Below, one piece after another: positions 4,901 to 34,397 of a stretch of 64,000 nucleotides of DNA. Every line of letters starts with the position of its first letter. Within the stretch, counting starts at the first letter, position 1. A model generated the notes under the pieces. The model was not told the origin of the DNA, ran no database searches, and saw only the letters and a program-made list of their open reading frames with translations. The position numbers and the translations under genes are program-made. This DNA is from Ostreococcus lucimarinus (taxonomy: Eukaryota): assembly GCA_000092065.1 (NCBI GenBank), contig CP000581.1; one strand, given 5' to 3'.

Positions 4901-5470
4901 GTGACGACGACGACGACGGCGCGCGCGCGCGCGGATTACGGCGACACGGTGTACATGAACGCGCTGCAGGGGGAGGGGAAGGATTACGGAAAGAAGGAGG
5001 TGCTGTATCCGGATTTCGAGCGCACGTCGAGCGGGCTGCAGTACAAGGACATGAAGCTCGGAAACGACGACGCGGCGACGTACGAGGGTAAATCTGGGAA
5101 AACGGCGGTGGTGGATTGGGATGGGTACACGATCGGGTACTACGGACGACCGTTCGAGGCGAGGAATAAATCCAAGGGCGGGGCGTTCACGGGGGACGAG
5201 AAGGACTTTTTTCGATTCAAGGCGGACGACGAGAAGGTGATCGGCGCGTTTCGAGAGGCGATCGAGGGAATGAAGGTGGGGAGCATTCGAAGGATTATCG
5301 TGCCCGCGAATAACGCAAAGTTGGGGTATCCCGATGGAAAGAAGTGGCGGACGATGCAGCCGCAACCGGCAAACTTTTCGGGCGAGCGGGCGTTGGGATT
5401 CGTGCTCGAAAATCAGGGCATGATTGACAAGACTCTATTGTTTGACATCGAACTCCTCGCGATTCGCTGA
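4901..5470 (+). CDS. FKBP-type peptidyl-prolyl cis-trans isomerase (thylakoid-lumen FKBP-like). The N-terminus may extend upstream.
   Basis: FKBP_C domain motifs (GLQYKDMKLG, VVDWDGYTIGYYGRPFEA, FRFKADDEKVIGAFREAIEGMKVGSIRRIIVP, LLFDIELLAI). Confidence 0.85.
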   Translation: MTTTTTARARADYGDTVYMNALQGEGKDYGKKEVLYPDFERTSSGLQYKDMKLGNDDAATYEGKSGKTAVVDWDGYTIGYYGRPFEARNKSKGGAFTGDEKDFFRFKADDEKVIGAFREAIEGMKVGSIRRIIVPANNAKLGYPDGKKWRTMQPQPANFSGERALGFVLENQGMIDKTLLFDIELLAIR

Positions 5471-15262: not shown

Positions 15263-17089
15263 TCATCCCTGGTCCATATCGCCGAGCGCGGCGCCAGACT
15301 CGCTCGCGTAAGCGTTCGATTTGTGCTTTGGCTGAAATGCGAATCCTTCAGGCGGCGGGCCGAGGAGCATTGTGGAGATCTTCACCCAATCGCTACTCGC
15401 CTCGCTCGCCATGAGTGTCTCCAAATCGTCCCGTCCAACAAACGCCGGTGGGCGCTGTGTCATCGCGGCAGCGCCGTAACTGTGATCCAACAACCCGATG
15501 GGGGTGTAGCGATACGTAAACGACATCCACTCGAGCAAATATTTGCGCGTCGACTCCACGCCTCGCGTGTCGCTTCCCCAGTGTTCGAGCCCGAAAGAGG
15601 CGAATGATTTCAAAATATCGAATCGCTCACGCGACGAAATGTCCCAGTCGCGACGCTCTTTGATTTCGGTGAACAGCCACGGCTTGATGAGCGCGCCGCG
15701 AGCGAGCATGCACGTGTCCACGGAGTGTTCCTCCAGATGGGTGTAGTAATCCTTTTGCATGTATACATCGCCGTTACCTATCAAAGGTACCGAGCTCGAC
15801 TCTTTTGTTAATTTGGTGTACTCCCAATCCGCCACGCTCCGGTATCGCTGCGCGCGCGTGCGTCCGTGAAGCGTCATCGCCGCCGCGCCCCATTCGGCGA
15901 CTTTCGGCGCAAACGTGTGCGCGACTCGACTTTTATCGGTGTACGCCATGCGCGTTTTGAACGTTAGCGAACACTTGCCAAGCGCCGCGCTGGCAGCACG
16001 AATGACTGTTTCCATCTTCTTGGGTTTCTCGAGCATCATCGACCCGTATCCTTTCTGGCACACGGAGTCGATCGGGCACCCCATGTTGATGTCTATAAAG
16101 TCGACGTCTATCGTGTCTTCGAGTAATTGGCAGCACCTGGTGACTGAGTCTGGGTAACCACCACATATCTGCACCCCAAAAATGTCTTCGCTCTTATGAC
16201 GACGAAGAAGCGCCCACTCACTCGGGAGTCCTTGCAGTAAACTCGTACACAACGCCATCTCACCGCACGTGATGTCGGCGCCAAGCGTCTTGCAAACGCG
16301 ACGAAACGGTAAATTTCCGACCGTCGTCAAAGGAGCTAGGTACAGCTTGTCTTTGAAGTCGATTGTTCTCTTCTCTTCGACGCGCGCTTTCGTAAACGCA
16401 CCCGTATCCGTACGGTTTTCTTCGTCGACTTTTGCGCGTTTCGCCGCGCTCTCCTCGCCCGCTTTCGTCTGCTCATCCTTTTTCGTCTCCATCGCCCTCA
16501 ACACTTCCTTCACGATCGTATCCGCCCTAGAAAAATCATACTTCTTCTTGCGTAACCGCACCATCACGTCCTTGTCCACGAAATTCATCTCCTTCTCCAC
16601 CGTCTTCGGCGGCTCGAGCGTCGTCGTCGACTCGGCAACCGTCGCGCCGTCCCGACCCTCCCCCGTCGCGTGCGTTCCGTAATATCGACAACGCACCCCG
16701 TACGGGCACCCGCCCTCTTTATTCACGAACGTGCACGTCCCCGGCAAATCGGGAGGTTTCGTCTTCAAAAACGCGTCGACGTCGTGCGAATATTTACACG
16801 CGTCGCCAAAGGCGCACTTTCCCTCGCGCGTCAACTGATTGCACAGCCCGCGCTCGCGCGGCTTATCCGCGCGCGACTTTTCGGCGAACTTGGCGCGTTT
16901 GTTGAACGCGCCGAACGTGCCGCCGCCCGAGATCGGCGCGGCGTCGCCGGCGTCGGCGTGGGTCGCCGCATCGAGCGGCGGCGGTGGTCTGGGCTCGACG
17001 AGAAACTCGCGCTTGACGACGACGGTACCGCTCGCGAAGAGCTCCGCGGACGTGGGCGGAGTCCACGGCGCGCCGACGTCGCTCGACAT
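15263..17089 (-). CDS. tRNA-dihydrouridine synthase 3-like (DUS3) with two N-terminal CCCH zinc fingers
   Basis: CCCH fingers CNQLTREGKCAFGDACKYSHD and CTFVNKEGGCPYGVRCRYYGTH. Dus catalytic region LAPLTTVGNLPFRRVC..., DINMGCP, TLHGRTRAQRY. Confidence 0.9.
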   Translation of the reverse strand: MSSDVGAPWTPPTSAELFASGTVVVKREFLVEPRPPPPLDAATHADAGDAAPISGGGTFGAFNKRAKFAEKSRADKPRERGLCNQLTREGKCAFGDACKYSHDVDAFLKTKPPDLPGTCTFVNKEGGCPYGVRCRYYGTHATGEGRDGATVAESTTTLEPPKTVEKEMNFVDKDVMVRLRKKKYDFSRADTIVKEVLRAMETKKDEQTKAGEESAAKRAKVDEENRTDTGAFTKARVEEKRTIDFKDKLYLAPLTTVGNLPFRRVCKTLGADITCGEMALCTSLLQGLPSEWALLRRHKSEDIFGVQICGGYPDSVTRCCQLLEDTIDVDFIDINMGCPIDSVCQKGYGSMMLEKPKKMETVIRAASAALGKCSLTFKTRMAYTDKSRVAHTFAPKVAEWGAAAMTLHGRTRAQRYRSVADWEYTKLTKESSSVPLIGNGDVYMQKDYYTHLEEHSVDTCMLARGALIKPWLFTEIKERRDWDISSRERFDILKSFASFGLEHWGSDTRGVESTRKYLLEWMSFTYRYTPIGLLDHSYGAAAMTQRPPAFVGRDDLETLMASEASSDWVKISTMLLGPPPEGFAFQPKHKSNAYASESGAALGDMDQG

Positions 17090-20193: not shown

Positions 20194-23061
20194 TCACTCG
20201 CGAATCGCGAATTCACTCACCGATCTCGTCATCGGTGTCTCATTTTCTGCCTCTGCGGCCTCGAGCGCTTTTTTGTCATGCGCTTCGCGCTTGCGTTGCC
20301 CGCGCGCCTCTCGAGCGATGACTTTTCGTTGCGAACGAATCATATTGTCAAACTCCGACGTCAGGCGATAATCAAACTGGTACGCCCACTGTACCTCGGT
20401 GTCTTGAAACACGAGCGCGCGAACGTCGCCTACGGCGCGAGCTGACGTCCACGCCGTGAGAGTTTCTTCTTCGCCGCTCGCTTCCAAGTTTTTCAATTCA
20501 CCGACGAAATTGCCCACTCGACGAACGCCGACGACGACGCCGTCGCGAGTCAGCGTGCACTCGCCTGCAGTTATTATGAAGAACTCCGTCGCCGGGTCAC
20601 CCTGCCGCGTGATGAGCTCGCCGCTTTTGAATCGACGTTCAGGTGGTTGATGAGAGATGGAAATCAACCCGTCGAGTCGGGTGTGCAGGTTATGCAGCGT
20701 GTCCGAAGTGTGCGAAGCCTGGCCAGTGAACCAGGCGTGTTCTAGTGCCTGAGTCGCGGTGAGCCTGCGCTTGGGATTGGGATCGAGTAAACCTTCTATC
20801 AAATCCTTCGCGACATCACTCACAGATTCCCACTCCTCCGTTTCGAAATCGAGATCACATTCAATGATTTGCTCGTAAAGTTCATCCTCATCGTCGTCAT
20901 CAAACGGCCACGTATTCGTGAGCAGGACGTGCATGGCGATTCCGAGCGCCCAAACATCCACGCCTTGACCGTACACGCCAGCAAGTAACGCCTCTGGGGC
21001 GATGTACGATAGTGTACCACACACGTGCTGCGCTTTTTGACGAGCGTTCAACGCCTTCGCCAAACCAAAATCGACAATGTTCAACGACTTCAAATCGCCC
21101 TTTTCAGCCAGAACAAAGTTCTCGAGCTTCAAATCTCTATGAATGACACCCTTGCCGTGCATGAACGCCACTGCATCGAGCATGGCAGACATTATTATCT
21201 TGACCTCTTCTTCGCTAAATGCCCCGCGCGCGTTCACCAAATCGTCGAGCTCCTCGCCTTGCAAGCAATCCATGACGACGTGCACGACTTCATCGTTTTG
21301 TTCAGTGAAAAACTCTCGTATGGTGACGATATGCGGGTGCGCTGAGAGCTGCTGCATCATGACGAGTTCGCGCTTGACTTCATGAAGCGTCATGGATTGA
21401 AGCTCATCCTCATCGTCGCTGTCTTCATCGCTCGATGACTCACTTCCACCTTCGTCGTCGCTGTCGCCGCCTAAACCTTCGACGCGAAGCGTCTTCACGG
21501 CGACGATTTCACCCGTGTTACGATGCTTCGCCTTGCGCACAACGGCAAAACCACCGGCACCAAGAGTTTCTAAAACGTCGTACTTGTCTAGGAAAGGCAT
21601 ATAATCGTGCACTAACCCGACTGGGCGAACAAAACGCGATGTGTCAAGATCGTCCAAACCGCCCGGCGCAGAATTCGTTCGTTTCAGCCCGAGCTTGTTT
21701 CGCGTTCGACCTTCGGGCTTATGTTCGATGCGTTTGGCGAACAAGTGCGCTAAACGATAGCTAGGCATGGCTTTAACCAGTAATCCTTTGGTGTCGAATC
21801 CCTGCGGTCGTTGCGAATTCTTCAAATTGTTTGGCATCGCTTGAGCGCGCAAGCCACTCCAACCAGTGTTGATTTGCCTCTTCGTCGCGCTCCCCATTCG
21901 AGTCAAACCGGCAGAGTTCTTGCGCTCCAAAGTCATGGCGTGCATACGGTCACTTATGAACGGTGCCGGAGACGCGCTTCGCGAGCCTCCTGGAGATTCA
22001 CCTGGAGACTTCGTCGCCTTCGCGAGCGCGGCGAGATCCGGCGCGCTGTCCAACCGAAGCAACTGCGCGTGACCACGCGCAGCTTTCCCTCCGTAAGATG
22101 CAGGTTTCACCGATGCCCAAGCACTCAGACCAACAGGTAGTAAACCTGCGCGTTTCGCTCGTTCAATAAGCTCGCCAAAGATTTCGGGTGCCTTGGGAAC
22201 GTCTATGGACACGTCCTTGAGCGCCGTGGCGGTGCGCGCGAAACCTTTCGCCATTTGACTTCCGTTCACCACAGAGCTCCGCCCGATGTATTTCAATAAA
22301 TCCACCACCTTTTCGATGACGTTAGGGGTCAAGATCGACTGCTCGATCGCCAGCGTCAGCGCTTTCTTGACGAGCTCGTGATGGTAAAAAGGCATGTTCA
22401 ACCGACGTAATCGCCGCTCCGCCTCGGCGCCGTCTCTCGACATCAAATACTCATCGATGATATCCCGCATCTCTATCTTGGCGTTATCCGCGCTGTATCC
22501 CTCGGGTCCGCCCCACGCCTTACGCACGCGCGACTCCCCACTCGCATCGGCCAGCGTCATTTTCGCCGACTTGGCCACGTCTCTTCCTTCGCCGTAACCG
22601 TCCCTCGAGCACGCCGTCTCCAGGTACGTCACCGACACCACATCATCCGCCACCGCGCGCGCCAAAAACGTCACGCACTCAGCCACGGCATCTGGGAAAT
22701 CGATTTTCAAATCCGCAACCTCCGCGAGCACGCGATCGAACCCACGTTCGAAATCCTCCGCGTCCAGCGTCCCGCTCGCCCTCGTCGCCGCGAGCGCCTG
22801 CGCGCACATCTCCCGCTCTCTCGCCCCTCTATCCAGCGCGCACGCGATCATGCGCTTCACGCAGTGCGCCTCCAGCCCACACTTCGCATCGCTCGCCCCC
22901 GCGCCCCCGCCCTGCGCCGCGATCGTCTCCGCGAGCGCGCGGTCGAACTCCTCCACGCTGCAGTGCGAAAAGAACTCTCGACAGCGCTTCTCCACGTCGC
23001 GCTTGAACGCCACCTCCTGTCCGACGTAATACTTGGACCGCGACGACCACGGCGCGGACAT
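20194..23061 (-). CDS. Multidomain protein: two PDCD4-like MA3 domains + CaMK-like Ser/Thr protein kinase + C-terminal cyclic-nucleotide-binding-like domain
   Basis: Start MSAPWSSRSKYYVGQEV (ATG complement at 23059-23061). MA3 motifs IIDEYLMSRDGAEAERRLRRLNMPFYHHELVKKALTLAIE. Kinase motifs LGAGGFAVV, AVKTL, HRDLKLENFVL, DFGLAK, SYIAPE. cNMP-binding motifs FKSGELITRQGDPATEFFIITAGEC ... GELKNLE. The upstream 205 codons of the track ORF (to 23676) are an Arg-rich artefact. Confidence 0.85.
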   Translation of the reverse strand: MSAPWSSRSKYYVGQEVAFKRDVEKRCREFFSHCSVEEFDRALAETIAAQGGGAGASDAKCGLEAHCVKRMIACALDRGAREREMCAQALAATRASGTLDAEDFERGFDRVLAEVADLKIDFPDAVAECVTFLARAVADDVVSVTYLETACSRDGYGEGRDVAKSAKMTLADASGESRVRKAWGGPEGYSADNAKIEMRDIIDEYLMSRDGAEAERRLRRLNMPFYHHELVKKALTLAIEQSILTPNVIEKVVDLLKYIGRSSVVNGSQMAKGFARTATALKDVSIDVPKAPEIFGELIERAKRAGLLPVGLSAWASVKPASYGGKAARGHAQLLRLDSAPDLAALAKATKSPGESPGGSRSASPAPFISDRMHAMTLERKNSAGLTRMGSATKRQINTGWSGLRAQAMPNNLKNSQRPQGFDTKGLLVKAMPSYRLAHLFAKRIEHKPEGRTRNKLGLKRTNSAPGGLDDLDTSRFVRPVGLVHDYMPFLDKYDVLETLGAGGFAVVRKAKHRNTGEIVAVKTLRVEGLGGDSDDEGGSESSSDEDSDDEDELQSMTLHEVKRELVMMQQLSAHPHIVTIREFFTEQNDEVVHVVMDCLQGEELDDLVNARGAFSEEEVKIIMSAMLDAVAFMHGKGVIHRDLKLENFVLAEKGDLKSLNIVDFGLAKALNARQKAQHVCGTLSYIAPEALLAGVYGQGVDVWALGIAMHVLLTNTWPFDDDDEDELYEQIIECDLDFETEEWESVSDVAKDLIEGLLDPNPKRRLTATQALEHAWFTGQASHTSDTLHNLHTRLDGLISISHQPPERRFKSGELITRQGDPATEFFIITAGECTLTRDGVVVGVRRVGNFVGELKNLEASGEEETLTAWTSARAVGDVRALVFQDTEVQWAYQFDYRLTSEFDNMIRSQRKVIAREARGQRKREAHDKKALEAAEAENETPMTRSVSEFAIRE

Positions 23062-23178
23062 CTCCGCGACGCGCTCGCCGCGACGCGACGCGCGCGCGCG
23101 ACGCCAGCGCGTCGAACGGCGCGATGTGATGCGCACCGAACGCGTCGCGCGCGACTTCGCGACGCGTCGCGCGTCGCC

Positions 23179-24525
23179 ATGGGCATCTTCGACGGCATCT
23201 TCGGCGGCGAGCCGCGCGCGTCGAGCGGCGCGTCCGCGCTGTTCGACGCGCGGTCGGCGTTTCACGCCGCGAGCGCGGCGGACGCGCCGGTGGTGCGCGC
23301 GCCGTTGTCGGCGTCGGCGAAGAAACGGGCGCGACGCGACGCGAGCGCGGACGCGACGGACGCGCGCGCGAAACGCGCGCGAGAAAAACCGAACGCGCGC
23401 GCGGCGAGCGCGGCGTCGTCGTCGTCGGACGCGGCGTCGAGCGAGGATGAGGGCGAAAGCGAGGACGATGCGCCGGCGGCGGCGGCGGTTTCGGACGAGA
23501 AACCGAACGGCGACAGCGACAGCGATGAGGGAGCGACGAAAGCGAAACCGTCGGGGTCGGGGTATCGCGATCGATCGGCGGAGGCGACGGCGGAGGAGCT
23601 GGCGCGGACGGTGTTCGTCGGGAACGTCCCGGCGAAGACGAAGCTGAAAAAGTTGAAGGCGAAATTCGGCGAACACGGCAAGGTGGTGAGCGTACGGTTG
23701 AGAAACGTGCCCGTGGAAGCGGATGGAAACGAACCTAGGAAAATTAAAGTGCTGAAGGGAAAATTAAACGCGGAGCGGGCGAACGCGACGGCGTTCGTGG
23801 TGTACGACGACGCGGCGTCGGCGCGCGCGGCGACGGCGGCGTTGAATATGAAGGAGTTCGAGGGACGGCACATTCGCGTTGATTTAGCGAGTAAACCATC
23901 GATCATACGAAGTGAGGTGGTGTATGATCACACGCGAAGTGTCTTCTTGGGCCATTTACCGTTTAATGTCGACGATGAGGACGTGATTCGGTTGTTCAAC
24001 AAGAATAAAGAGTATCCCGATTTGCGCAAGAGCGTCGAGGCCGTGCGCGTGGTGCGAGACAGAAAGACGACCATGGGTAAGGGCATCGGGTTCGTGTTGT
24101 TCAAAACGCCAGCGCAAGCGCGTACGGCGCTTTTGCTTGACGGGAGTAAGCTCGGCGATAGAGAGATTCGCGTGAGCAAAGCCGCTCGATCCAAGGCGCC
24201 GAAACCCGGCACGCCGAGCAAGGCGCGCGCCGAGCCGAAGGTCGCCACCGGTGCCGAACGACGGAATCCGAAGCTTCGTGACGAAGGTGGCGATGCGTCG
24301 ACGTCGCGTGGCACAAACGCGTGGGAAGGGTCGAGATCTCGTCCCGGTGGAAAATCGTCCAAGAGCGCGCACCGCGGCGGCGAGGCGCAGCGCGGCGCCC
24401 CAGGCGCGAGGCAAACTTCGAGTAAAGCCGGCATCGCGAAGGCGGCCAAACGATCGGGAAAGCGCCCCGCCGTGGCGGCGCGCAAGGCCAAAGCCAAGGC
24501 GTCCGCGGCGGCGGGACGTAACTAA
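23179..24525 (+). CDS. Nucleolar RNA-binding protein with two RRMs (Nop12/RBM34-like)
   Basis: RRM1 TVFVGNVPAKTK...ATAFVVYDDAASARAA. RRM2 SVFLGHLPFNVDDEDV...KGIGFVLFKTPAQARTAL. Lys/Ala-rich basic tail. Confidence 0.8.
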   Translation: MGIFDGIFGGEPRASSGASALFDARSAFHAASAADAPVVRAPLSASAKKRARRDASADATDARAKRAREKPNARAASAASSSSDAASSEDEGESEDDAPAAAAVSDEKPNGDSDSDEGATKAKPSGSGYRDRSAEATAEELARTVFVGNVPAKTKLKKLKAKFGEHGKVVSVRLRNVPVEADGNEPRKIKVLKGKLNAERANATAFVVYDDAASARAATAALNMKEFEGRHIRVDLASKPSIIRSEVVYDHTRSVFLGHLPFNVDDEDVIRLFNKNKEYPDLRKSVEAVRVVRDRKTTMGKGIGFVLFKTPAQARTALLLDGSKLGDREIRVSKAARSKAPKPGTPSKARAEPKVATGAERRNPKLRDEGGDASTSRGTNAWEGSRSRPGGKSSKSAHRGGEAQRGAPGARQTSSKAGIAKAAKRSGKRPAVAARKAKAKASAAAGRN

Positions 24526-24688: not shown

Positions 24689-25195
24689 TCACGATTCGTC
24701 AGTCGTCGCGTTCGCTCGCCCTCGTCCCGCGTCGCCTTCGTTTGAGATACTCTTTGCCCTCGCGCGTCCGTCTCGCGCGCTCGCTCGATCAACGCCTTCG
24801 CCGCGCACCTTGGCCGCCTCTTGAAAACTCTTCACCGTCTTCCCGAGCGACTTTCCGAGCTCGGGAAGCTTGCTCGGGCCGAACAGCACCGCGGCGACGC
24901 CACCGATGACGACGATTTCAGGAAGCCCGAGCCCGAACAATCCGTTGGAAATCACGCGCGCGCGTCGTCGTTCGAGCGCCGCGCGACGCGGCGCCAGCGC
25001 GGACGATCGCTGTGCGTACGTTTGACGCGCCGCGACGCGCGTCGCGCGCGCCGGGGCGTGCACGGTAAACATCACGACGGATTCTGCGGTCGATCGCTCG
25101 CGCGCGGTCGCCGGCGTCGCCGCATTCGCGCGCGCGCGCGACGTCACGCGCGACCGTCGACGCTCGTGACGCGCTGAGATGACGTAACGCTGCAT
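24689..25195 (-). CDS. TATA: Twin-arginine translocase subunit TatA/Tha4 (plastid-type) with transit peptide
   Basis: GLFGLGLPEIVVIGGVAAVLFGPSKLPELGKSLGKTVKSFQEAAK is the canonical TatA TM + amphipathic helix. The exact start (25195 or the internal Met) is uncertain. Confidence 0.85.
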   Translation of the reverse strand: MQRYVISARHERRRSRVTSRARANAATPATARERSTAESVVMFTVHAPARATRVAARQTYAQRSSALAPRRAALERRRARVISNGLFGLGLPEIVVIGGVAAVLFGPSKLPELGKSLGKTVKSFQEAAKVRGEGVDRASARDGRARAKSISNEGDAGRGRANATTDES

Positions 25196-25257: not shown

Positions 25258-27922
25258 ATGTCGACGCGATGCGCCGACGCGCAGTCGCTCAACCGCGCCG
25301 TCGTCGCCGCTCGCGCGCCGCGCGAGCTCGTCGCGCTCATCGACGGCAACGACGCGCTGCTGAACGCGATCAACTGCGCCGCGATCGCGGGCAAGGCGGC
25401 GAAGATGCACGCGCTGGCGGAGAAACGCGACGATGGCGCCGCCGCCGGGGAGGCGCGCGCGGTGGTGAAAACCATCGCGAACGTCGCGCGCGCGTCGCTG
25501 GAACGCGCGCCGCGCGAGTGGTGGCCGCGGCAGTGCGCGGCGATGCTTTGGGCGTGTGGACGCGCGAACGCGCGGGATGAGGCGATGGAACGCGCGATCG
25601 AGGCGATGGTGGAGGCGCGCGCGCGAATGTTCAAGCCGCAGGAACTGTCGAACGCGTTTTGGGGATTGGCCAAGGCGAAGAGCGATACCGTGGGATTGTG
25701 GTTGATATTGGGAGACTTGATACGAGCGTCGTTGATGGTGGATAAAGGGACGGATCATCAGAACGGATGGACGCCGCAAGGGGTGTCGAACGCGGCGTGG
25801 AGCTTGGGGGCGATGACGGAGACGACGCGACGAGGCGTGTTCGAGGAGAGCGCGCTGGGACGCGAGCTCGCACGTGGGATCGCGGTGGCGGTGGAAGAAC
25901 GAGTTGAGATGTTCAATCCGCAAGAATGTGCGAATACGATGTCTGGGTTCGCGAAGTGTGGGTCGAGCGTGCGAGAAGACGCCGAAGTAGGTGTCAAGGC
26001 GTTGTGCTCGCGATTGAAGCGAGAACGCGCGTGGTTCTCCGGCGGCGAGTTTCAGTGCCAGCACGTCTCCAACGTTATTTGGGCGTGCGCGAAGTTGAAC
26101 ATGAGCGATGATGCGGAATTGATCGCTATATTCGTCGACGCGGCAAACGAGTACGCGAACAAGTTCAACGCGCACGAACTCTCGATGGTTCTGTGGGCGC
26201 TCGCGAATCTCGCCGTCGACGATCACAAAGTCATGCACGCGCTCGCAAAGTCGATGGCGAGGAAAGCGGACGAATCATCGGCGCAGCAAATCGCGACGTC
26301 AGCGCACGCGATGGCAAAGCTCGGGATTTATAACTCACAGATAATGAAGGCTTACAAGGATCACGCCGCGGCGCGCAGAGATGAATTTCAGCCGCGCGAC
26401 ATCGCGTTCTTGGCGTGGTCGTTCGCAAAACTCGACATCAAGGCACCAGAACTGTTTGAAATGTTTAGCGCTGTGGTGTGTGAGATGTTGTTCGACGTCG
26501 AGTTTCAAACCTTTTCGCCACACCACTTGACGATGGTGTTGTGGTCGTTCGCCATGCTCAACGAAAATACGCAAGAGGTTTTACCATACATCGTGCGGGC
26601 GATGAAGTCCATGATCGACGAGTTCAATCCGCGAGATTTGACGAACACGGCGTGGGCGCTCGCCGCGCTCGGATGCGACGACAATGAATTAATCAAAGCA
26701 CTGGGCGCGTGCGCACAAATGAAGCTCAACGACTTTAATTCGCAGGAGCTTTTAAAGTTCCTCGGTTCGTACGAGCGACTCGGCGTTGAAGACGCTTCAC
26801 TCGCCAAAGCCGTGTCGGCGCGGCGTACGTTGTCGTACGAGTTTCCCTCAATGAACGCTACCATCGAGCTCACCGCGGCGACACCGCAGAGTTACAAAGG
26901 TACCGATCGTGTCCGCGTCGACGATAGCTGTGGGGGATGGGGAAGAGGAAACACGGGTGTGGCACTGTGGGAAGGAAGTTTTGTTTTAGCGGAGTGGTTA
27001 TCTCGACAGAAATCGCCGCTCGCGACGGAGGGCGTCGCTAAGGCGCTCGGTGGAGCTTGGGACGACGATTGGAAGGGTAAAGTATGCGTTGAACTCGGTG
27101 CTGGTTTAGGTTTACCGTCCGTAGTCGCTTCCAAACTTGGCGCGCACGTTGTCGCTACCGACGGTACGTTTCGCGCGTCTTCTTTCGACTTGTTCGTCCT
27201 TCGCCACTGTTAATCCCTTCATTGGACTTTCTGTGTCCTTGGAGTTTCAAATGTGGCACACATCAACTCGGGAGTTTCGCTGACAGCACTCGCACGTTTC
27301 GGCGGGCCATGAGTGTCATCTGATAGTAGCTCTCGCACATTCATCGCGCGTATCGCACATCGAACTGACGAGTTCCTTTTCATTCCACGCAGGCGACGAC
27401 GACGTCTTGACGCTACTGCGAGAGAACGTCGAAGCAAACGCGGCGAAGGACGCACGCGTAGAGAAACTTGTTTGGGGCAACGAAAAGCCGCTAAAAACTC
27501 TCGGGTTAAAAACGCAGCCGGATCTTGTCTTGGCGAGCGACGTCGTGTACGGTAACGACCCGGCCAAGTGGACGAATCTCGTGCGCACGATGCGCGACTT
27601 GGCTGGGCCGAACACGCTCATTTTGATCGCAAACGTCCAGCGGTACCCTGTACACCATCCGCTCGCGGAAACTAAGTTTTACACCGAGTCAACGGTAAAA
27701 GATTTTGAGCGAACGGAGCTACCAGTGACGGCATTACACTCCGATTTCCAACGCACTGGCGCCGGTAATTGCGTCATTCACGTGTTTCGTCCGCGCGGCG
27801 ACAAAAAGAGAAAGTCGGCGAGTAAAGATGCAAAAAAGGAGAAGAAGGCAAAAAAGGAGAAGAAGGAGAAGAAGGAGAAGAAGGAGAAGAAGGAGAAGAA
27901 AGAGAAGAAAGAGAAGTCCTAG
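25258..27922 (+). CDS. Repeat protein with ~10 OPR/FASTK-like 38-residue repeats fused to a METTL21-like (Methyltransf_16) protein-lysine methyltransferase domain and a (KEKKEK)n tail. Exons 25258..27166 and 27393..27922.
   Basis: Repeats of form F-N-P-Q/R-E/D-L-S-N-x-x-W-A-L-A-K-L-G (QELSNAFWGLAKA, HELSMVLWALANLA, RDLTNTAWALAALG...). Exon 1 ends ..ELGAGLGLPSVVASKLGAHVVATDG|GTACGT. CTGAC at 27365-27369, CAG| at 27390-27392. Exon 2 continues in frame with G-DDDVLTLLRENVEANAA..VWGNEKP..PDLVLASDVVY (MTase motif post-I/II). Confidence 0.75.
27820..27905 (+). repeat. Coding (GAGAAG/GAGAAA)n hexanucleotide repeat giving the KEKKEKKEKKEK C-terminal tail
   Basis: Read directly from the sequence. Confidence 0.9.
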
Positions 27923-28004: not shown

Positions 28005-28976
28005 CTACGGCGGCAGGTCAGAGTTTGTGAGTGGTTTCGCGAGCAAAATGTGCCCAACCTCGACGAGACCGAGCTTCGCGAAGGGATTGTTCTTGCTCGA
28101 ACGTTGCGCGATTTGCGCCGAGGTGAGCTTCGCCTTGACCTCAGGCGGCTCCTCGTATCCGCACTTTTCAAAGAGAATCTGCGCAGCCTCGTTGTCAACC
28201 TTAGTGTGCGTGTACAATATGGTTTCGCCCATATTCGCCATCGCGCGCTCGGCCGCGAGCACGAGTTGTCGGCCGATCCCACGCCCGCGCTGCGTCGGGC
28301 TCACGCACACGTCTGACAAGTACGCCTTGTCCCTCGGCGCCCTCGGCTGCAGCTTGTCGGCCCCGTATCTATTGCCGTTCGGCAACGACACCTCCGAAAT
28401 CCCCACCAACACGTTCCCAACCTTGGCAGATATCAAAATACGATCCTCCGCCGTCTTCACGCCGTCCAAAAGTCCCATGCGCACGCGCTTCGCTTGTTCG
28501 CCTCGCAATCGGTTCTTCGCCAAGATATCCTGCGGCCTCACCTTGAAAAACAAGTCCATCACCAAATTCGTCGCATCGTCCACATCCTCCTCCTCCAGCA
28601 CCCCGATCACGACGTTCCCTTTCGTCTTCATCTCCACCGACACCCGCTTCACCGCCTGATCCTTCTTCGCCGTCGCCTGACTCTTCTGCCGCTTCGTCGG
28701 CGCGAACTTCACCGTCCCCGCCGCCAGGTCCACCATCAACATCGGCCGCGGTCCATCGCTCACCGCCTCTCCCGTCGTCGTCGTCACGCCGCGAATCGAC
28801 GCGCTCTTCCTTCCGTCCACCGCGGTCCCCGTCTCCGCGTCATCGCTCGCGTTCGCGCGCGTCGCGCGTCGCGTCGTCGACTTATCCGTCGGCATCCGCG
28901 TCCTCGCCTTCGCGCGACCGACGCGCGGGGCGCGCGCCGCGCCCACCACCGCGGTCGCGCGCGTCGTCGTCGACAT
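28005..28976 (-). CDS. GNAT-family N-acetyltransferase with organellar-type presequence
   Basis: Acetyl-CoA-binding motif VCVSPTQRGRGIGRQLVLAAERAM. Ser/Thr/Arg-rich N-terminus. Confidence 0.8.
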   Translation of the reverse strand: MSTTTRATAVVGAARAPRVGRAKARTRMPTDKSTTRRATRANASDDAETGTAVDGRKSASIRGVTTTTGEAVSDGPRPMLMVDLAAGTVKFAPTKRQKSQATAKKDQAVKRVSVEMKTKGNVVIGVLEEEDVDDATNLVMDLFFKVRPQDILAKNRLRGEQAKRVRMGLLDGVKTAEDRILISAKVGNVLVGISEVSLPNGNRYGADKLQPRAPRDKAYLSDVCVSPTQRGRGIGRQLVLAAERAMANMGETILYTHTKVDNEAAQILFEKCGYEEPPEVKAKLTSAQIAQRSSKNNPFAKLGLVEVGHILLAKPLTNSDLPP

Positions 28977-29258: not shown

Positions 29259-32200
29259 TTGGGTCAATCGATGTCGAACGAAAACGCGCGGTGGACGCGT
29301 CGTCGCGCGAAAGGGCGCGGGATGGTGCGGACGGTGATGACTGACGAGATCCGCGCGGCTTTGAACGGTGCGCAGTTGAAAACGTGCGGAGTGAACCCGC
29401 AATGTATTTCGTTCACGAATCTCACCATGGAGAGCGAGAAGTACGTGTGCGCTCGGGAGAGCGGGACGACGAATAATGTGGTGATCGTCGAGGTGAATAA
29501 CCCGCTGCAGCCGATGAAGAAACCGATCACGGCGGATAGCGCGCTTATGAACCCGACGCAGAACGTGATTGCGCTCAAGGCGAGAGTGGAGAACGAGAAT
29601 GGCGTGGAGGATTCGTTGCAGATTTTCAACATTGATCAAAAGGCGAAAATCAAGGGGCACGACATGGAGCCGGTGGTGTTTTGGAAGTGGATCACGCCGA
29701 AAATGTTGGGGATCGTGACCAACACCGCGGTGTTTCACTGGTCGATCGATGACGCGAACGCGCCGGTGAAGGTGTTTGACAGAACTGCAAACCTGAACGG
29801 GAATCAGATCATCAGCTATAAAGCATCAGAGGACATGCAGTGGTTCACGCTGATCGGTATCGCGCAAGGCGACGCGTCGAGACCGGCGTTAGTGAAGGGT
29901 AACATGCAGCTGTACTCGGTGGCGCAACAACGCTCGCAGCCGCTCGAGGCGCACATGGCGGCGTTCACGACGCACCAAGTGCCGGGCAACGCGCAAAAGA
30001 GTCAGTTGGTATGTTTCGCTCAAAAGATGGTTCAAGCCGATGGATCGGTGGTTTCCAAGCTTCATGTGATTGAGCTCGGCGCGCCGGCAGGGCAAACGCC
30101 GTTCACGAAGCGCACGAGCGAGTTGTTTTTCCCGCCCGAGTTTGCCGACGACTTCCCGGTCGTCATGCAAGTGAGCGACAAATACGGCGTCATTTACATC
30201 GTCACCAAGAGCGGTCTGCTGTTCGTGTACGACGTGGAAACTGCGTCGCCGATCTACCGAAGCCGCATTTCGCAAGATCCGGTCTTCGTCGGCGCGTCCG
30301 CGACGAGCGTTGGCGGTTTGTACGTTGTTAACAGAGGCGGCCAAGTCTTGTTGATCACCCTGAACGAAGCCGCCGTTGTGCCGTTCATCAGCAGCACGCT
30401 CAATAACTTGGAGCTTGCGCTTTCGGTCGCGTCGAGAGGGAATCTTCCCGGCGCCGATGCGCTCGTGATGCCCAAGTTTGATATGCTCTTCAACTCTGCG
30501 GACTACAAGGGGGCGGCCGAACTCGCGGCGAGCATGAGCTCGTTGCGCACAGATCAGACCATCGCCCGATTTCGCGGCGTCCCGACTCAACCGGGCCAAA
30601 GTTCTCCTTTGTTACAGTACTTTGGCGCGTGCTTGCAGCGCGGAAAGTTGAACAAGCTGGAATCAGTTGAACTCGCAAAGCTCGTGCTTGCGCAAAACAA
30701 GAAGCAGCTTCTCGACACATGGCTGAGCGAGGACAAGCTCGAGGCGAGCGAAGAACTCGGCGACATGCTGGCGCCGACTGACTCCGATACTGCGCTTAAG
30801 ATTTACGTCAAAGCACGCGCGAGTCCGAAGGTAACCGCAGCGTTCGCGCAGCGTGGCGAATTCGACAAGATGGCGCAATACTGCTCCGCCGTCGATTACA
30901 AGCCAGACTATATGTACATGTTGCAAGCTCTTATGATGAAAGATCCCGCGAGCGCGGTGCAGTTGGCACAAAAGATCAGTCAGATGACACCGCCACCGTG
31001 CGACATGGGGGCCATCGCCGATCTCTTCTTGCAGCGCAACATGATTCGTGAGGCGACATCGATCTTGCTCGATTTGCTCAAGGGCGACGACGAGAGCCAA
31101 GCGGCGCTGCAAACCAAGGTTCTTGAGATCAACTTGGTGACATACCCGAACGTCGCTGATGCGATCTTGGCGCAAGGAAAGCTCACGCACTACGACCGCC
31201 CGCGCATCGCGCAGCTCTGCGAGAAGGCTGGTCTTTACATTCGAGCCATGGAGCACTACACGGAGCTCGCCGACTTGAAGCGTTGTGTCGTCAACACACA
31301 CTCGATAGACCCGCAAGCGCTCACTGAATTCTTCGGTACACTGAGCCGCGAGTGGGCTTTGGACTGCCTTAAGGAACTTCTCACGTTCAACATGCGTCAA
31401 AACCTTCAGATGGCGGTGAACATTGCTAAGGAGTACACGGAACAACTCGAGATTCACTCTGTCGTGAAGATGTTTGACAAGTTTGAATCTGCCGAAGGCC
31501 TCTTCTACTACCTCGGGTACTTCGTGAACACGTGTGAAGACAAGGACCTTGTGTACAAATTTATCGAAGCTGCTTCAAAGACTGGACAGATCAAGGAAGT
31601 CGAGCGAGTGACGCGCGAGAGCGATCATTACGATGCCGAACGCGTCAAGGTGTTCCTCATGGAAGCCAAGCTCTCAGATGCTCGTCCGCTTATCAATGTG
31701 TGCGACCGTTATGAGTTCGTTCCGGATTTGACGACATACCTTTACAACAACAACATGTTGCGCTACATCGAAGGCTACGTGCAAAAAGTCAACCCGAAGC
31801 AGGCGCCGAAGGTCGTTGGTACACTGTTGGATCTCGAGTGCCCGGACGATTTCATCAAGACTCTCATCTTGTCCGTGCGATCTCTCTTGCCCGTGGCGCC
31901 GCTCGTGGAAGAAGTGGAGAAACGTAACCGCTTGAAGATCCTCACGCAATTCCTCGAGCACCTCGTGAACGAAGGGAGCGTGGATCCGCAAGTACACAAC
32001 GCCATGGGTAAGATGCTCATCGATAGCAACCAGAACCCAGAGCACTTTTTGCTCACAAACGAGTACTACGAGTCCGCCATCGTCGGTCGCTACTGCGAGA
32101 AGCGCGATCCGTACTTGGCGTGCGTAGCGTACAAGCGTGGCAACTGCGACGCAGAGTTGGTGGATTGCACGAACAGAAACAGTATGTTCAAGGTTCAGGC

Positions 32201-34397
32201 GAGATATGTCGTCGAGCGTATGGACGCCGATCTCTGGGCATCTGTGTTGACGGAAGAAAACAAATACTGCCGCCAGCTTATCGACCAAGTCGTGTCTACC
32301 GCACTCCCAGAAAGCAAGAACCCTGAGCAAGTTTCTGTGACCGTGAAGGCGTTCATGACGGCAGAAATGCCGCATGAACTCATCGAGTTGTTGGAGAAGA
32401 TCGTGCTACAAAACAGCGCGTTCAGCAACAACCCGAACTTGCAAAACTTGCTCATCCTTACCGCCATCAAGGCGGACGCATCTCGCGTCATGGATTACGT
32501 CAACCGACTCGACTCTTTCAACGGTCCGGAGGTCGGTGAGATTGCCGCCGGTAACGAGTTGTACGAAGAAGCCTTTGCCATCTTCAAGAAGTTTGATCTG
32601 CATGTTGACGCGATGAAGATTCTTCTCGAGTCTCTCGAAGACCTCGATCGTGGCATCGAGTACGCGCGCAAGGTCGACTTACCCGAAGTTTGGGTCCAAA
32701 TCGGCAAGGCGCAGCTCAAGGTTGGCACTCCGGAGGCGGTTAAAGCGGCCATCAAGTCGTACATCAAGGCGCAAGATGGGAGTGATTTCGTCGACGTCAT
32801 TCACGCCGCGCGCCAAGCCGACATGTACGAAGACATGGTTCCATATTTGCTCATGGTGCGCAAGAACAAGAAAGAAGCTCGCGTCGATACTGAACTTGTG
32901 TACGCGTACGCCAAGATCAACGATTTGGCCAAGCTCGAAGACTTTTTGGCTACGCCGAACAGCGCGAATCAGCAGTCCGTCGCCGACAGATGCTTTGGCG
33001 AAGGTTTGTACGAGGCTGCTCGACTTTTGTACACCGCGCTCAGCAACTGGGGCTGCCTTGCGAGCACTTTGCTCAAACTTCGCATGTTCCAAGGTGCAGT
33101 CGACGCCGCGAAGAAGGCTAACTCCCCGCGTACGTGGAAGGAAGTGTGCTTTACGTGTCTCGAAGAAGGCGAAAACAAGCTCGCGCAGCTCGCCGGTCTC
33201 AACATCATTATCCAAGCTGATGAACTCGATTCCGTCAGTGAGTACTACCAAGCGAATGGTAAGTTCACCGAGCTTATCCAGCTTATGGAAGCCGGCGTCG
33301 GCGTTGACCGGGCGCACATGGGTATTTTCACCGAGCTCGGCATCTTGTACGCCAACCACATGGCCGACAAGCTCATGGAACACATTCGTTTGTTCAGCGC
33401 GCGCATCAATATTCCGCGACTCATAACCACGTGCAACCACGTGGCGTTGTGGCCCGAGCTCGCGTATCTTTACAGGTGCTACGACGAGTACGATAACGCT
33501 TGCGAGGTGATGATGAAGCACCCCGACGCTTGGGAGCACGTGGTCTTCAAGGATGTGTGCGTCAAGCTTGCCAACGCGGACTTGTACTACCAGGCGATCG
33601 AGTTTTACCTTCGCGAGCACCCAACAGAGATGACCAATCTTCTCGGTGTACTTCAGTCGAGACTTGATCACTCTCGCGTGGTGTCGCTCATGCGCAAGGA
33701 GGGTAAGTTGGCCATGGTGAAGGAGTACCTTTTAGCTGTGCAGGGTGCAAACTTGACGGCGGTGAACGACGCCGTGAACGAACTCGCGATCGAAGAAGAA
33801 GATCACGCGGCGTTGAAGACTTCGCTCGATATGTACGACAATTGCGATCAACTATCTCTTGCGGTACAATGCGAGAGCCACGAACTGATCGAGTTCCGAA
33901 GAATTTCTTCGTACATCTATCAGCGCAACGCGCGATGGCAGCAAGCCATCGATCTTAGCAAGCGGGATGGGTTACTTAAGGACGCCATGGAAATCGCCGC
34001 GAAGAGTGGAGACGCGACCATCGTGGACGAACTTCTCGACTACTTCATCGATCAAGGCAACAAGGAGTGCTTCTCCGCCGCCTTGTGCACGTGCTACGAC
34101 TTGTTGAAGCCCGACGAAGTCATGCAAAAGGCATGGTTGAAGGGTCTTAGCGACTGGGTCATGCCTTACATGATTCAAGTCATGCGTGATATGAACGGTA
34201 AGTTGGAGATTTTGATGAAGGATAAGGCGGACCGCAACGAAGAAAAGGTGAACGAGGAGAAAGAGCGCGTCGCGGCCGAGATGAATAGCAACCTCTACGC
34301 GCAACTCATGCCTGCGGCGCTTCCGGCTCCGCCGATGCCGGGCATGCCGGGGTACGAGCAACCGCAACCGGGATACGGGCAACCGCAGTATTACTGA
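29259..34397 (+). CDS. CHC: Clathrin heavy chain (single exon; the true start is probably the ATG at 29321 or 29336)
   Basis: 1712-aa ORF collinear with CLTC: [26 protein letters not shown].. ~ human [25 protein letters not shown]. Propeller, CHCR repeats, and the trimerisation C-terminus with Pro/Gln/Gly/Tyr-rich tail. Confidence 0.97.

Follow-up and report, generated by a model that had tools for sequence, protein, structure and literature searches.

The OPR/HPR/FASTK superfamily (Tbc2-type OPR proteins of Chlamydomonas, apicomplexan HPR proteins, human FASTK and FASTKD1-5, RESC6/RESC8 of trypanosomes and the mitoribosomal mL115/mL123) is characterized by degenerate tandem repeats of about 37 amino acids with a ..PQ(E/D)L(S/A)N..WA.AKLG.. 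core, which build up an alpha-solenoid of helix pairs. To our knowledge, work on these arrays has been confined to organellar proteins that handle RNA, most of which end in a RAP domain. The METTL21-type lysine methyltransferases (METTL21D/VCP-KMT, METTL21A, METTL21C and METTL21B; PDB 8hl6, 4lg1, 4lec, 4mtl, 4qpn and 7oas) are small stand-alone, single-domain enzymes with poorly understood substrate choice, METTL21A and METTL21D being methyltransferases of chaperones or AAA ATPases. In the literature HPR is placed within OPR (PMC13126933). The H/ACA box snoRNA Ot-HAsno1 is located in an intron of the Ostreococcus tauri gene ostta01g01810; it is expressed at about 74 TPM and uncapped, and its pseudouridylation targets predicted by snoGPS are U2157 and U2194 of the 25S rRNA (PMC7671301).

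The window, i.e. the whole stretch of 64,000 nucleotides that was analysed, contains a locus on chromosome 1 of Ostreococcus lucimarinus which, judged from its sequence, is one spliced protein-coding gene with an intron doubling as a snoRNA gene. Its features are the following:

25258..27163, + strand: exon 1 (from the ORF and the spliced model), encoding an N-terminal cap, 11 helical repeats, a beta-hairpin linker and the first part of the methyltransferase (MTase) domain
25471..26793, + strand: 11 HPR/OPR-type helical repeats, aa 72-512, modal period 37 aa
26950..27811, + strand: Methyltransf_16 (seven-beta-strand lysine methyltransferase) domain, aa 565-775, split between the two exons
27164..27392, + strand: the sole intron, 229 nt, phase 1, GTACGT donor, CAG acceptor
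27198..27342, + strand: H/ACA box snoRNA predicted within the intron, 145 nt, orthologue of Ot-HAsno1
27203-27257, 27260-27265, ~27269-27335 and 27337-27339, + strand: 5' hairpin, H box (ACAUCA), 3' hairpin and ACA box of the snoRNA
27393..27922, + strand: exon 2, encoding the remaining MTase part (motif II LVWG, post-II DVVY, motif III and the C-terminal LHxDFxRTGxGxCVIH strand), the basic tail and the stop codon
27812..27919, + strand: basic C-terminal tail, GDKKRKSASKDAKKEKKAKKEKKEKK..., net charge +16, with KKRK at aa 773 and a (KEK)n stretch

Taken as a whole, the locus is probably best explained as a spliced solenoid-MTase gene with a snoRNA in its intron, the product of which would carry out solenoid-targeted lysine methylation outside the organelles. 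The solenoid would be a substrate-selecting platform that holds one specific partner (an RNA-protein particle or a protein), and the MTase domain would use S-adenosylmethionine to methylate a lysine on a protein of this bound partner. The protein would work most likely in the nucleus, in the nucleolus or on a cytosolic ribonucleoprotein such as (pre-)ribosomes, its basic tail might give nuclear import and/or non-specific RNA affinity, and the excised intron would release the H/ACA snoRNA.

The repeat array could be recognized at the level of sequence as well as structure, and in both the likeness to the OPR/HPR/FASTK superfamily is significant. Eleven anchors of the FxPQELSNxxWAxAKLG type are present between aa 88 and 493, spaced in order by 37, 46, 48, 46, 38, 37, 37, 42, 37 and 37 residues. 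When each unit was scored by a leave-one-out HMM, 10 of the 11 reached 11.9-34.6 bits, the last unit being marginal, and shuffled sequences (200 per unit) did not exceed 8.2 bits. The array announced in the preliminary description as about ten 38-residue repeats is real, its number of units and modal period being corrected to 11 and 37. FAST_1 (PF06743) matched in two stretches with 44.1 bits against a Pfam cut-off of 27.4, and DUF6832 and, weakly, DUF1601 also matched in the array. Among the solved proteins its sequence matched RESC6 (E 6.5e-17), mL123 (7.9e-7), mL115 (2.1e-6), RESC8 and ASA2, and in Foldseek the target-normalised TM score with RESC6 was 0.65-0.72. The family profile matches proteins named Tbc2 and RAP-domain proteins with E-values of 1e-48 or better. 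The AF2 model of the exon-1 product (pLDDT 88.1, pTM 0.80) shows a solenoid of about 27 helices extending to about aa 520.

The protein differs from the superfamily in several respects. In Pfam there was no match to FAST_2 or to a C-terminal RAP at E <= 1, no PPPEW-like motif (the classical Chlamydomonas OPR signature) occurs anywhere in the protein, no N-terminal extension for organelle targeting is seen, the array lacks a basic character, and a lysine methyltransferase takes the C-terminal place of the RAP nuclease-like domain. The OPR/FASTK-type assignment made previously is thus supported by FAST_1, RESC6 and the OPR/HPR relatives, whereas membership of the FASTK family in the strict sense was rejected, since FAST_1 is accompanied by neither FAST_2 nor RAP and Methyltransf_16 occupies the C-terminus. 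The 37-aa period together with the weak DUF1601 match suggests that the array suits the HPR subtype better than classical OPR.

The enzymatic part is a METTL21-type seven-beta-strand methyltransferase that looks catalytically intact by its motifs, in agreement with the preliminary description. Methyltransf_16 (PF10294) scored 70.3 bits (E 2.2e-19; cut-off 21) over aa 565-720, covering profile positions 16-161 of 174; both domains for which a Pfam search had been recommended are above their cut-offs. The part encoded by exon 1 comprises the substrate-side helices, motif I (VELGAGLGLPS, aa 611) and post-I (VVATDG, aa 631), both found in the family consensus, and ends with ...ATD and the first base of the following Gly codon. 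As had been claimed, exon 2 continues in frame with further Methyltransf_16 motifs; those identified are motif II LVWG at aa 661, post-II LASDVVY at aa 682 (ASDVVY lying within 682-688) and TLILIANV at aa 710. The D and Y of DVVY are kept in all seven spliced models, and the catalytic motifs are complete and form the best-conserved part of the protein. Pfam family, fold, motif I, post-I, motif II (LxWG) and post-II (DxxY) are shared with the METTL21 group end to end over the catalytic core, but the Ostreococcus protein adds an N-terminal solenoid of about 520 aa and the basic tail to what are otherwise single-domain enzymes. Matches to PDB sequences were obtained with 7oas and METTL21D/A/C/B; METTL21D, A and C score almost alike (45-49 bits, ~20-28% identity), and sequence scores give no orthology to any named enzyme (METTL21A, B, C, D, CaM-KMT or eEF2-KMT). 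The evidence for the full-length fold comes from the homologue P0020, which is 32% identical to the O. lucimarinus protein, the latter having been modelled as the exon-1 product only. In the P0020 model (pLDDT 86.6) the MTase fold gave target-normalised TM scores of 0.83 with METTL21A, 0.80 with VCP-KMT and 0.77 with 7oas in Foldseek. CaM-KMT and FAM86A match by fold only, and the UniRef label 'calmodulin-lysine N-methyltransferase' carried by homologues is unsupported, CaM-KMT (4pwy) reaching a target-normalised TM of 0.65 and no sequence match at E <= 0.01.

The repeat-encoded lysine/glutamate tail noticed earlier was recovered by TRF as a 9-nt tandem repeat, (AAGGAGAAG) x 9, at 27836-27916 with 90% matches, which encodes (KEK)n. 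All 7 spliced orthologue models end in a basic tail, the sequence of which varies, and so do P0020, P0209, P0247, P0280 and P0284; the tails have net charges of +9 to +16 and KKRK/KRKR motifs, and they are NLS-like in most of the full-length homologues. The K/E-rich tail is of low complexity and is not a proof of nucleolar targeting.

The array is acidic to neutral (pI 5.4-8.8, net charge -12 to +6), which suggests that it would suit a protein ligand no less than RNA. The solenoid might accordingly be a purely protein-protein adaptor that handles no RNA, the whole being a lysine methyltransferase of soluble proteins like METTL21A/D with a docking domain and the tail an unrelated low-complexity appendage. 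Such an adaptor would find a parallel in ASA2 of the Polytomella ATP synthase, which has the same fold in an RNA-free complex, and the nearest solved enzymes are indeed VCP-KMT (METTL21D) and METTL21A. We consider it unlikely nevertheless, since most of the characterised array relatives associate with RNA, different phyla share the strongly basic tail, and the identity to METTL21A-D is just ~20-28% with no clear orthology.

The kinship of the array with RESC6/RESC8, with mitoribosomal proteins of T. gondii, Chlamydomonas and Polytomella and with Tbc2-named proteins, and the fact that all solved array relatives belong to mitochondrial complexes, would also fit an organellar factor, in which the array binds a chloroplast or mitochondrial transcript or rRNA and the MTase modifies an organellar ribosomal or RNA-associated protein; the first 22 residues, rich in Ala, Arg and Ser with a net charge of +3, point the same way. 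This is a doubtful reading in view of the N-termini. In the O. lucimarinus protein, P0010, P0019, P0020, P0022, P0026 and P0280 just 3-9 residues precede the conserved LN..L...FN.VNC helix, which would be too few for a transit or signal peptide, and no full-length homologue has an N-terminal extension beyond the conserved fold. In the alignment the first 22 residues fall on the first helix conserved in homologues from secondary-plastid algae, which would need a signal peptide and a transit peptide for plastid import. Moreover, this helix is confidently folded from residue 8 in the AF2 model of the exon-1 product, and the basic NLS-like C-tails are conserved. The previous label of 'organellar RNA-binding repeat proteins' is not supported: there appears to be no space for a presequence, most homologues have NLS-like basic tails, and the array is not basic. 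Returning to the non-organellar solenoid-MTase, we propose tentatively that it may represent the first non-organellar branch of OPR/HPR/FASTK, i.e. a nuclear/nucleolar (or cytosolic-ribosome-associated) solenoid reading RNA or RNP and delivering a METTL21-type enzyme; in green picoalgae its gene would be kept in physical linkage with a guide for rRNA pseudouridylation.

Modification of RNA instead of protein by the MTase domain, guided by the repeat array, has a parallel in related arrays that carry an RNA-modifying enzyme (PF00849 in Polarella and Alexandrium), and generic methyltransferase models of Pfam gave weak matches too. It is highly improbable, however: Methyltransf_16 is by far the best model, the domain keeps the post-II motif D-x-x-Y, which is typical of protein lysine methyltransferases of family 16, and all the close solved relatives are protein methyltransferases. 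Assignment as an RNA methyltransferase was rejected on these grounds.

The structure of the gene was established from the splice sites and from comparison with orthologues. The spliced coding sequence is 2436 nt long, corresponding to 811 aa and a stop codon, and the unspliced ORF covers 25258-27213. The divergent upstream gene begins only 62 nt away, too close for a 5' exon to fit between, and this too counts for the non-organellar reading. The intron splits the Gly codon of ...VVATDG after its first base (G|GTACGT). The in-frame splice, the GTACGT donor in the first SAM-binding region, the CTGAC and the CAG acceptor of the preliminary description were all confirmed, but the boundary was 3 nt off: exon 1 ends at 27163 and not at 27166, and the intron has 229 nt and not 226. 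The branch-type CTGAC is at 27365-27369, 24-28 nt 5' of the CAG acceptor; a second CTGAC (27280-27284) falls inside the snoRNA.

The orthologue comparison that had been suggested revealed an intron at the same codon position in seven other loci (L003-L008 and L010), with G|GTRCGT donors and YAG|G acceptors, where splicing restores G-D-[DES]-[DE]-V-L. In the intron-free homologues P0020, P0022, P0026, P0209, P0210 and P0213 the ATDGD... sequence is contiguous. Exon 2 evolves as coding sequence: in the comparison with six orthologues the codon-position differences are 54-61% for third and 11-28% for second positions, and its identity across the orthologues is 55-79%, against 39-73% in the aligned region, which is mostly exon 1. 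The read-through tails, by contrast, vary in length and in sequence among the orthologues. Exon 2 offers no start codon 5' of motif II, and in the AF2 model the exon-1 product alone has only strands beta1-beta2 of the Rossmann core, so that splicing is needed to make the enzyme. The conservation of exon 2, the shared intron site and the contiguous intron-free homologues led us to reject two separate genes. P0141, P0143 and P0144 were rejected as spliced models, as they are upstream-extended ORF calls reading into the intron.

That the ORF stays unspliced and ends at 27213 as a 651-aa repeat protein, with the downstream ORF as a separate gene or a relic, can hardly be maintained: prokaryote-style gene callers do report exactly this 651-aa ORF in metagenomes (P0001), and neither the spliced 811-aa protein nor the exon-2 ORF was found by exact look-up in the protein collection, but the divergent tails, the missing start codon, the Rossmann core cut after beta2 and the homologues contiguous across the junction all stand against it, as do the annotation of the O. 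tauri orthologue ostta01g01810 with the same intron and its uncapped snoRNA, which is expected if the RNA is processed from an excised intron. The spliced gene model corrects the automated calls that split this gene in metagenome catalogues.

The intron itself encodes a conserved H/ACA snoRNA, a predicted rRNA guide. It is identical to Ot-HAsno1 of O. tauri at 133 of 145 positions (92%), and host gene, intron and boxes are the same, the guide pockets being near-invariant; the expression evidence belongs to the O. tauri RNA, the O. lucimarinus one being known from sequence. The ACA box is located 3 nt from the end of the snoRNA (27342). In the four helices 97.1% of the cells are paired and 10 of the 26 pairs show compensatory changes; none of the 500 shuffles equalled these values, and slid controls paired at 32-48%. 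Although the minimum free energy fold returns the same two hairpins, thermodynamic stability alone is not significant (z = -1.34), and the case for the snoRNA rests on covariation and orthology. More distant likenesses are snoR83 (RF01227) and SNORA62 (RF00091) of Rfam. In E-value mode over the full model length they gave 31 bits (gathering 40, E 4.6e-4) and 29 bits (gathering 80, E 8.6e-4), respectively, and in gathering mode nothing in the intron matched. Routine annotation would miss this snoRNA, since its scores are below the Rfam gathering thresholds; the preliminary description of the locus did not include it.

The snoRNA accompanies the gene in six of the loci (L003-L008). L010 has the intron at the same site with no Rfam match and no pocket motifs, and in the Diacronema gene the introns are elsewhere and the pocket motifs are absent. 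The snoRNA is a plausible reason for the persistence of the intron in a very intron-poor genome, at least in Ostreococcus-type lineages. In O. tauri 33% of the intronic snoRNAs are in ribosome-biogenesis hosts and 18% in RNA-processing hosts (PMC7671301). The link of the present protein to ribosome biogenesis is drawn from these host-gene statistics and from the rRNA-guide snoRNA in its intron; snoRNA hosting may give only a statistical hint at the function of the host gene.

The preliminary description considered the architecture unusual; it is uncommon, yet recurrent and not unique. Fusions of a repeat array with Methyltransf_16 were also detected in a haptophyte, a dinoflagellate, a pelagophyte-labelled sequence and other marine sequences. 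The name given to ostta01g01810, the orthologue in O. tauri, is simply "lysine methyltransferase", and the literature yielded nothing relevant on repeat-array/Methyltransf_16 fusions, on ostta01g01810 or on METTL21 with helical repeats. Both building blocks are already well known and current ideas are not overturned, but the family provides a natural example of a methyltransferase that carries its own specificity domain. Its occurrence in two green picoalgae, a haptophyte and a dinoflagellate, together with the apparent lack of signals for organelle targeting, suggests that the arrays could be general, swappable targeting modules, some of them acting outside organelles. By analogy, the fusion of related arrays to various enzymes likewise suggests modular targeting modules: besides RAP, the partners are pseudouridine synthase (Polarella/Alexandrium), Methyltransf_3 (Durusdinium), MTS and FAD-monooxygenase domains. 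In these other algal fusions the solenoid is N-terminal to the catalytic domain, as in the O. lucimarinus protein, and the catalytic partners differ.

The open reading frame at 25258-27213 passes through ...ELGAGLGLPSVVASKLGAHVVATDG and reaches a stop 16 codons further on, and a second, frame-compatible ORF (27407-27922) lies downstream of it. The sole junction that restores the methyltransferase splits a Gly codon after its first base, and the spliced product has 811 aa:

25258-27163, + strand, exon 1 of the spliced model
27164-27392, + strand, intron, 229 nt (donor G/GTACGT, branch CTGAC at 27365-27369, acceptor CAG/GC)
27393-27922, + strand, exon 2 of the spliced model

The donor, branch and acceptor and the rest of the intron had been correctly described in the preliminary description, but its exon end (27166) and intron length (226 nt) were off by 3 nt.

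The case for splicing is comparative. It draws on seven homologous loci (L003-L008, L010), taken from metagenomes of marine origin and from an NCBI assembly; the products of their first exons share 36-73% identity with the window protein. The intron was found at the identical codon position and phase in all seven, with donors G/GTRCGT, acceptors YAG/G and a spliced frame that gives ATDG-D-[DES]-[DE]-V-L. Read-through tails past exon 1 vary among the homologues in length and sequence, while exon 2 is kept as coding DNA: against six orthologues, 54-61% of its third codon positions differ, compared with 11-28% of its second positions. Homologues without the intron are contiguous at this site (P0020, ATDGDQDV; P0022, ATDGDDAV; P0026 of Diacronema lutheri, ATDGDGPT), and the fragments P0209 and P0210 and the catalogue sequence P0213 ('merc' source) are likewise uninterrupted. 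AlphaFold models the exon-1 product (pLDDT 88.1, pTM 0.80) with a Rossmann core that stops after strands beta1 and beta2; without splicing the enzyme would be incomplete. The O. tauri orthologue, ostta01g01810, is annotated with the same intron (PMC7671301, Table S3). The proposed joining of the two exons was borne out by these lines of evidence; judged from sequence comparison the locus is one spliced gene, and an unspliced gene, or two separate genes, is extremely improbable.

The first part of the protein carries 11 anchors of the type F-x-P-Q-E-L-S-N-x-x-W-A-x-A-K-L-G across aa 88-493, spaced by 37, 46, 48, 46, 38, 37, 37, 42, 37 and 37 residues. In leave-one-out HMM scoring, ten of the units reached 11.9-34.6 bits, and 200 shuffles of each gave at most 8.2; the eleventh unit, which caps the array, was marginal. 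Pfam matches of the array were FAST_1 (44.1 bits, cut-off 27.4), DUF6832 (26.6, cut-off 26) and, weakly, DUF1601, and the newer RESC6 and RESC8 families were among the precomputed matches. By sequence the nearest solved chain is trypanosome RESC6 (E 6.5e-17), followed by Polytomella mL123, Chlamydomonas mL115, RESC8 and the ATP-synthase subunit ASA2. By fold the exon-1 model matches RESC6 (target-normalised TM 0.65-0.72), RESC8 and many mitoribosomal repeat proteins of T. gondii, Polytomella and Chlamydomonas. The family profile reaches many RAP-domain proteins and proteins that bear the name of the OPR prototype, Tbc2, at E 1e-48 or better. The array does belong to the OPR/HPR/FASTK superfamily, and its 37-residue period, together with the absence of a PPPEW motif from the window protein, fits the HPR subtype. 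Strict FASTK-family membership (FAST_1-FAST_2-RAP) was rejected, since neither FAST_2 nor RAP had a Pfam match in the window protein.

The METHYLTRANSFERASE half of the protein is its best-conserved portion and matches Methyltransf_16 strongly (70.3 bits, Pfam cut-off 21). All motifs were found: motif I VELGAGLGLPS, post-I VVATD, motif II LVWG, post-II ASDVVY and motif III TLILIANV. The closest solved sequences are a PDB 7oas chain and METTL21D, A, C and B (E 3e-12 to 4e-7). Fold comparison was done on the full-length homologue P0020 (32% identical, pLDDT 86.6, pTM 0.75), with target-normalised TM of 0.83 to METTL21A, 0.80 to VCP-KMT, 0.78 to METTL21C and 0.77 to 7oas, and poorer matches to FAM86A and CaM-KMT. 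The label "METTL21-type" is correct; one-to-one orthology was not evident in the sequence and fold comparisons. Two homologues bear the UniRef name "calmodulin-lysine N-methyltransferase", which their closeness to CaM-KMT does not back. Both domain assignments first made for this gene, OPR/FASTK-type repeats and a METTL21-type lysine methyltransferase, have held.

The protein ends in a basic tail, GDKKRKSASKDAKKEKKAKKEKKEKK..., of net charge +16, in which the motif KKRK stands at aa 773; part of the tail is encoded by nine copies of (AAGGAGAAG) at 27836-27916. All seven spliced orthologue models have such a tail (net +9 to +16), although its sequence drifts, and it recurs in the distant homologues P0020, P0209, P0247, P0280 and P0284; that of P0020 is predicted to be a single long helix. 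The KKE/D type of tail is characteristic of nucleolar proteins, Nop56, Nop58 and dyskerin among them; for the window protein this likeness serves as a lead only.

Peptide stretches common to the read-through "tails" of different homologues indicated conserved DNA within the intron, which proved to hold an RNA gene overlooked in the preliminary description:

27198-27342, + strand, H/ACA snoRNA, orthologue of O. tauri Ot-HAsno1, inside the only intron of the fusion gene

Its Rfam matches, snoR83 (31 bits, E 4.6e-4) and SNORA62 (29 bits, E 8.6e-4), cover the full model length but are below the gathering score, so standard annotation would miss it. It is identical to Ot-HAsno1 at 133 of 145 positions. 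Ot-HAsno1, hosted by the intron of ostta01g01810, is an uncapped H/ACA snoRNA of 144 nt that was detected in O. tauri at ~74 TPM; its predicted targets are 25S U2157 (5' hairpin) and 25S U2194 (3' hairpin) (PMC7671301 supplements). The window copy was aligned with Ot-HAsno1 and six orthologues from metagenomes. Of the cells in the hairpin-hinge-hairpin-tail structure 97.1% are paired, and compensatory changes occur in 10 of 26 pairs; none of 500 shuffles reached the observed value, and slid controls paired 32-48% of cells. The presumed guide pockets are near-invariant and the intron flanks unalignable. The H box ACAUCA lies at 27260-27265, and the ACA box (27337-27339) is 3 nt from the 3' end. 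The snoRNA offers a plausible explanation for why this intron has been kept in a genome that is poor in introns, at least among Ostreococcus-type lineages. Intron and snoRNA are not strictly tied: in L010, with the same intron position, the snoRNA was not detectable, and the Diacronema gene has introns at other positions.

To our knowledge all characterised relatives of the repeat array are organellar, and an organellar role had been implied for this protein too. The conserved first helix, LN..L...FN.VNC, is modelled confidently from residue 8 of the exon-1 product, and the window protein, P0010, P0019, P0020, P0022, P0026 (haptophyte) and P0280 (dinoflagellate) start 3-9 residues before it, which leaves no space for a signal or transit peptide. 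A missed 5' exon is unlikely, since a divergent TatA-like gene has its start codon 62 nt from that of the fusion gene. The array is acidic to neutral (pI 5.4-8.8), the tail strongly basic. The family does not look organellar, and we infer a nucleo-cytoplasmic, possibly nucleolar, location. The preliminary description was sound on domains and splicing, but its organellar implication is wrong or unproven, the presequence space being absent from the window protein and its full-length homologues alike.

A single spliced gene thus encodes a solenoid joined to what looks like an intact lysine-methyltransferase core and ending in a basic tail, and its intron carries an H/ACA snoRNA. In the proposed mechanism, the solenoid would select the substrate, a ribonucleoprotein or a protein, in which the enzyme would methylate a lysine; the protein would act outside organelles, and the tail may aid nuclear or nucleolar targeting or RNA contact. 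Hosting a snoRNA of the rRNA-guide kind fits a link to ribosome biogenesis without proving it; of the snoRNAs found in O. tauri introns, 33% are hosted by ribosome-biogenesis genes (PMC7671301). That the solenoid is an adaptor for proteins only is unlikely. An organellar role, as in the relatives of the array, is unlikely: secondary-plastid algae require a signal peptide plus a transit peptide for organelle import, and their homologues lack the space for either. Methylation of RNA by the enzyme is very unlikely.

Array and Methyltransf_16 occur together in O. lucimarinus, the picoeukaryote loci L003-L008 and NCBI assembly GCA_014466335.1 (L010), and, by annotation and the shared intronic snoRNA, in O. 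tauri. Complete fusions were also found in the haptophyte Diacronema lutheri (P0026), the dinoflagellate Durusdinium trenchii (P0280) and P0020, P0022, P0282, P0284 and P0285. The L010 homologue (36% identity, locus GC 47%) has its phase-1 intron at 5111-5330, at the same ATDG/G site. In P0019 (EukProt, labelled Pelagococcus subviridis) the array is followed by the enzyme's first half, and the sequence breaks off at the intron site; its end, just past ATDG, looks like intron read-through. This entry bears a pelagophyte label and shares the Mamiellophyceae-type motif RVDDSCxGWGRG, so the label, or the possibility that the intron is ancient, calls for a check.

Related arrays are joined to RAP, pseudouridine synthase, Methyltransf_3, MTS and FAD-monooxygenase domains; the array thus behaves as a portable module, which suggests a general family of repeat arrays attached to enzymes. 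Enzyme-fused RESC6/FAST-type arrays include P0028-P0030 and P0301 (Polarella, Alexandrium), P0347/P0362 (Durusdinium), P0364 and P0032/P0322, the partners in dinoflagellates and other protists being pseudouridine synthase (PF00849), Methyltransf_3 (PF01596), MTS (PF05175) and FAD-monooxygenase. Our literature search found no description of the array-methyltransferase fusion, and the O. tauri gene is listed solely as "Lysine methyltransferase (IPR019410)". The gene is a new, uncharacterised architectural variant of two known families. Prokaryote-style gene callers split it into a 'hypothetical protein' of 650-830 aa running into the intron and a separate 'Methyltransf_16' ORF of 150-200 aa (P0001, P0003, P0005, P0010, P0027, P0141-P0144, P0197), which hides the fusion in public catalogues; one cluster member is labelled 'transposase-like protein'.

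The window (GC ~63%), part of chromosome 1 of the green picoalga O. lucimarinus, is intron-poor, and the following neighbours were recognized:

15263-17089, - strand, tRNA-dihydrouridine synthase Dus3, identical to XP_001415794 (O. lucimarinus CCE9901)
22864-24525, + strand, possible RRM-type RNA-binding protein (RRM_1 match on the correspondingly placed L008 gene)
24689-25195, - strand, TatA/Tha4-like ORF (GLFGLGLPEIVVIGGVAAVLFGPSKLPELGKSLGK...), head-to-head with the fusion gene
28005-28976, - strand, GNAT acetyltransferase, identical to XP_001415798 (O. lucimarinus CCE9901)
29259-34397, + strand, clathrin heavy chain, a single uninterrupted ORF of 1712 codons
48841-48917, + strand, U6 spliceosomal RNA match (RF00026, 60.2 bits, gathering score 44, model positions 1-73 of 105)

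The head-to-head arrangement suggests a bidirectional promoter shared by the TatA/Tha4-like ORF and the fusion gene. L003 and L004 likewise have a TatA gene on the upstream side, the downstream side of L004 and L005 holds GNAT and clathrin genes, and in L008 it holds an ORF of GNAT size. U6 is the only Rfam match at gathering score within the whole window. In the fusion gene, GC at third codon positions falls from 0.80 over the opening 900 nt of exon 1 (25258-26157) to 0.66 over the remainder (26158-27162), and the overall GC of exon 2 and of the intron is ~0.51-0.52.
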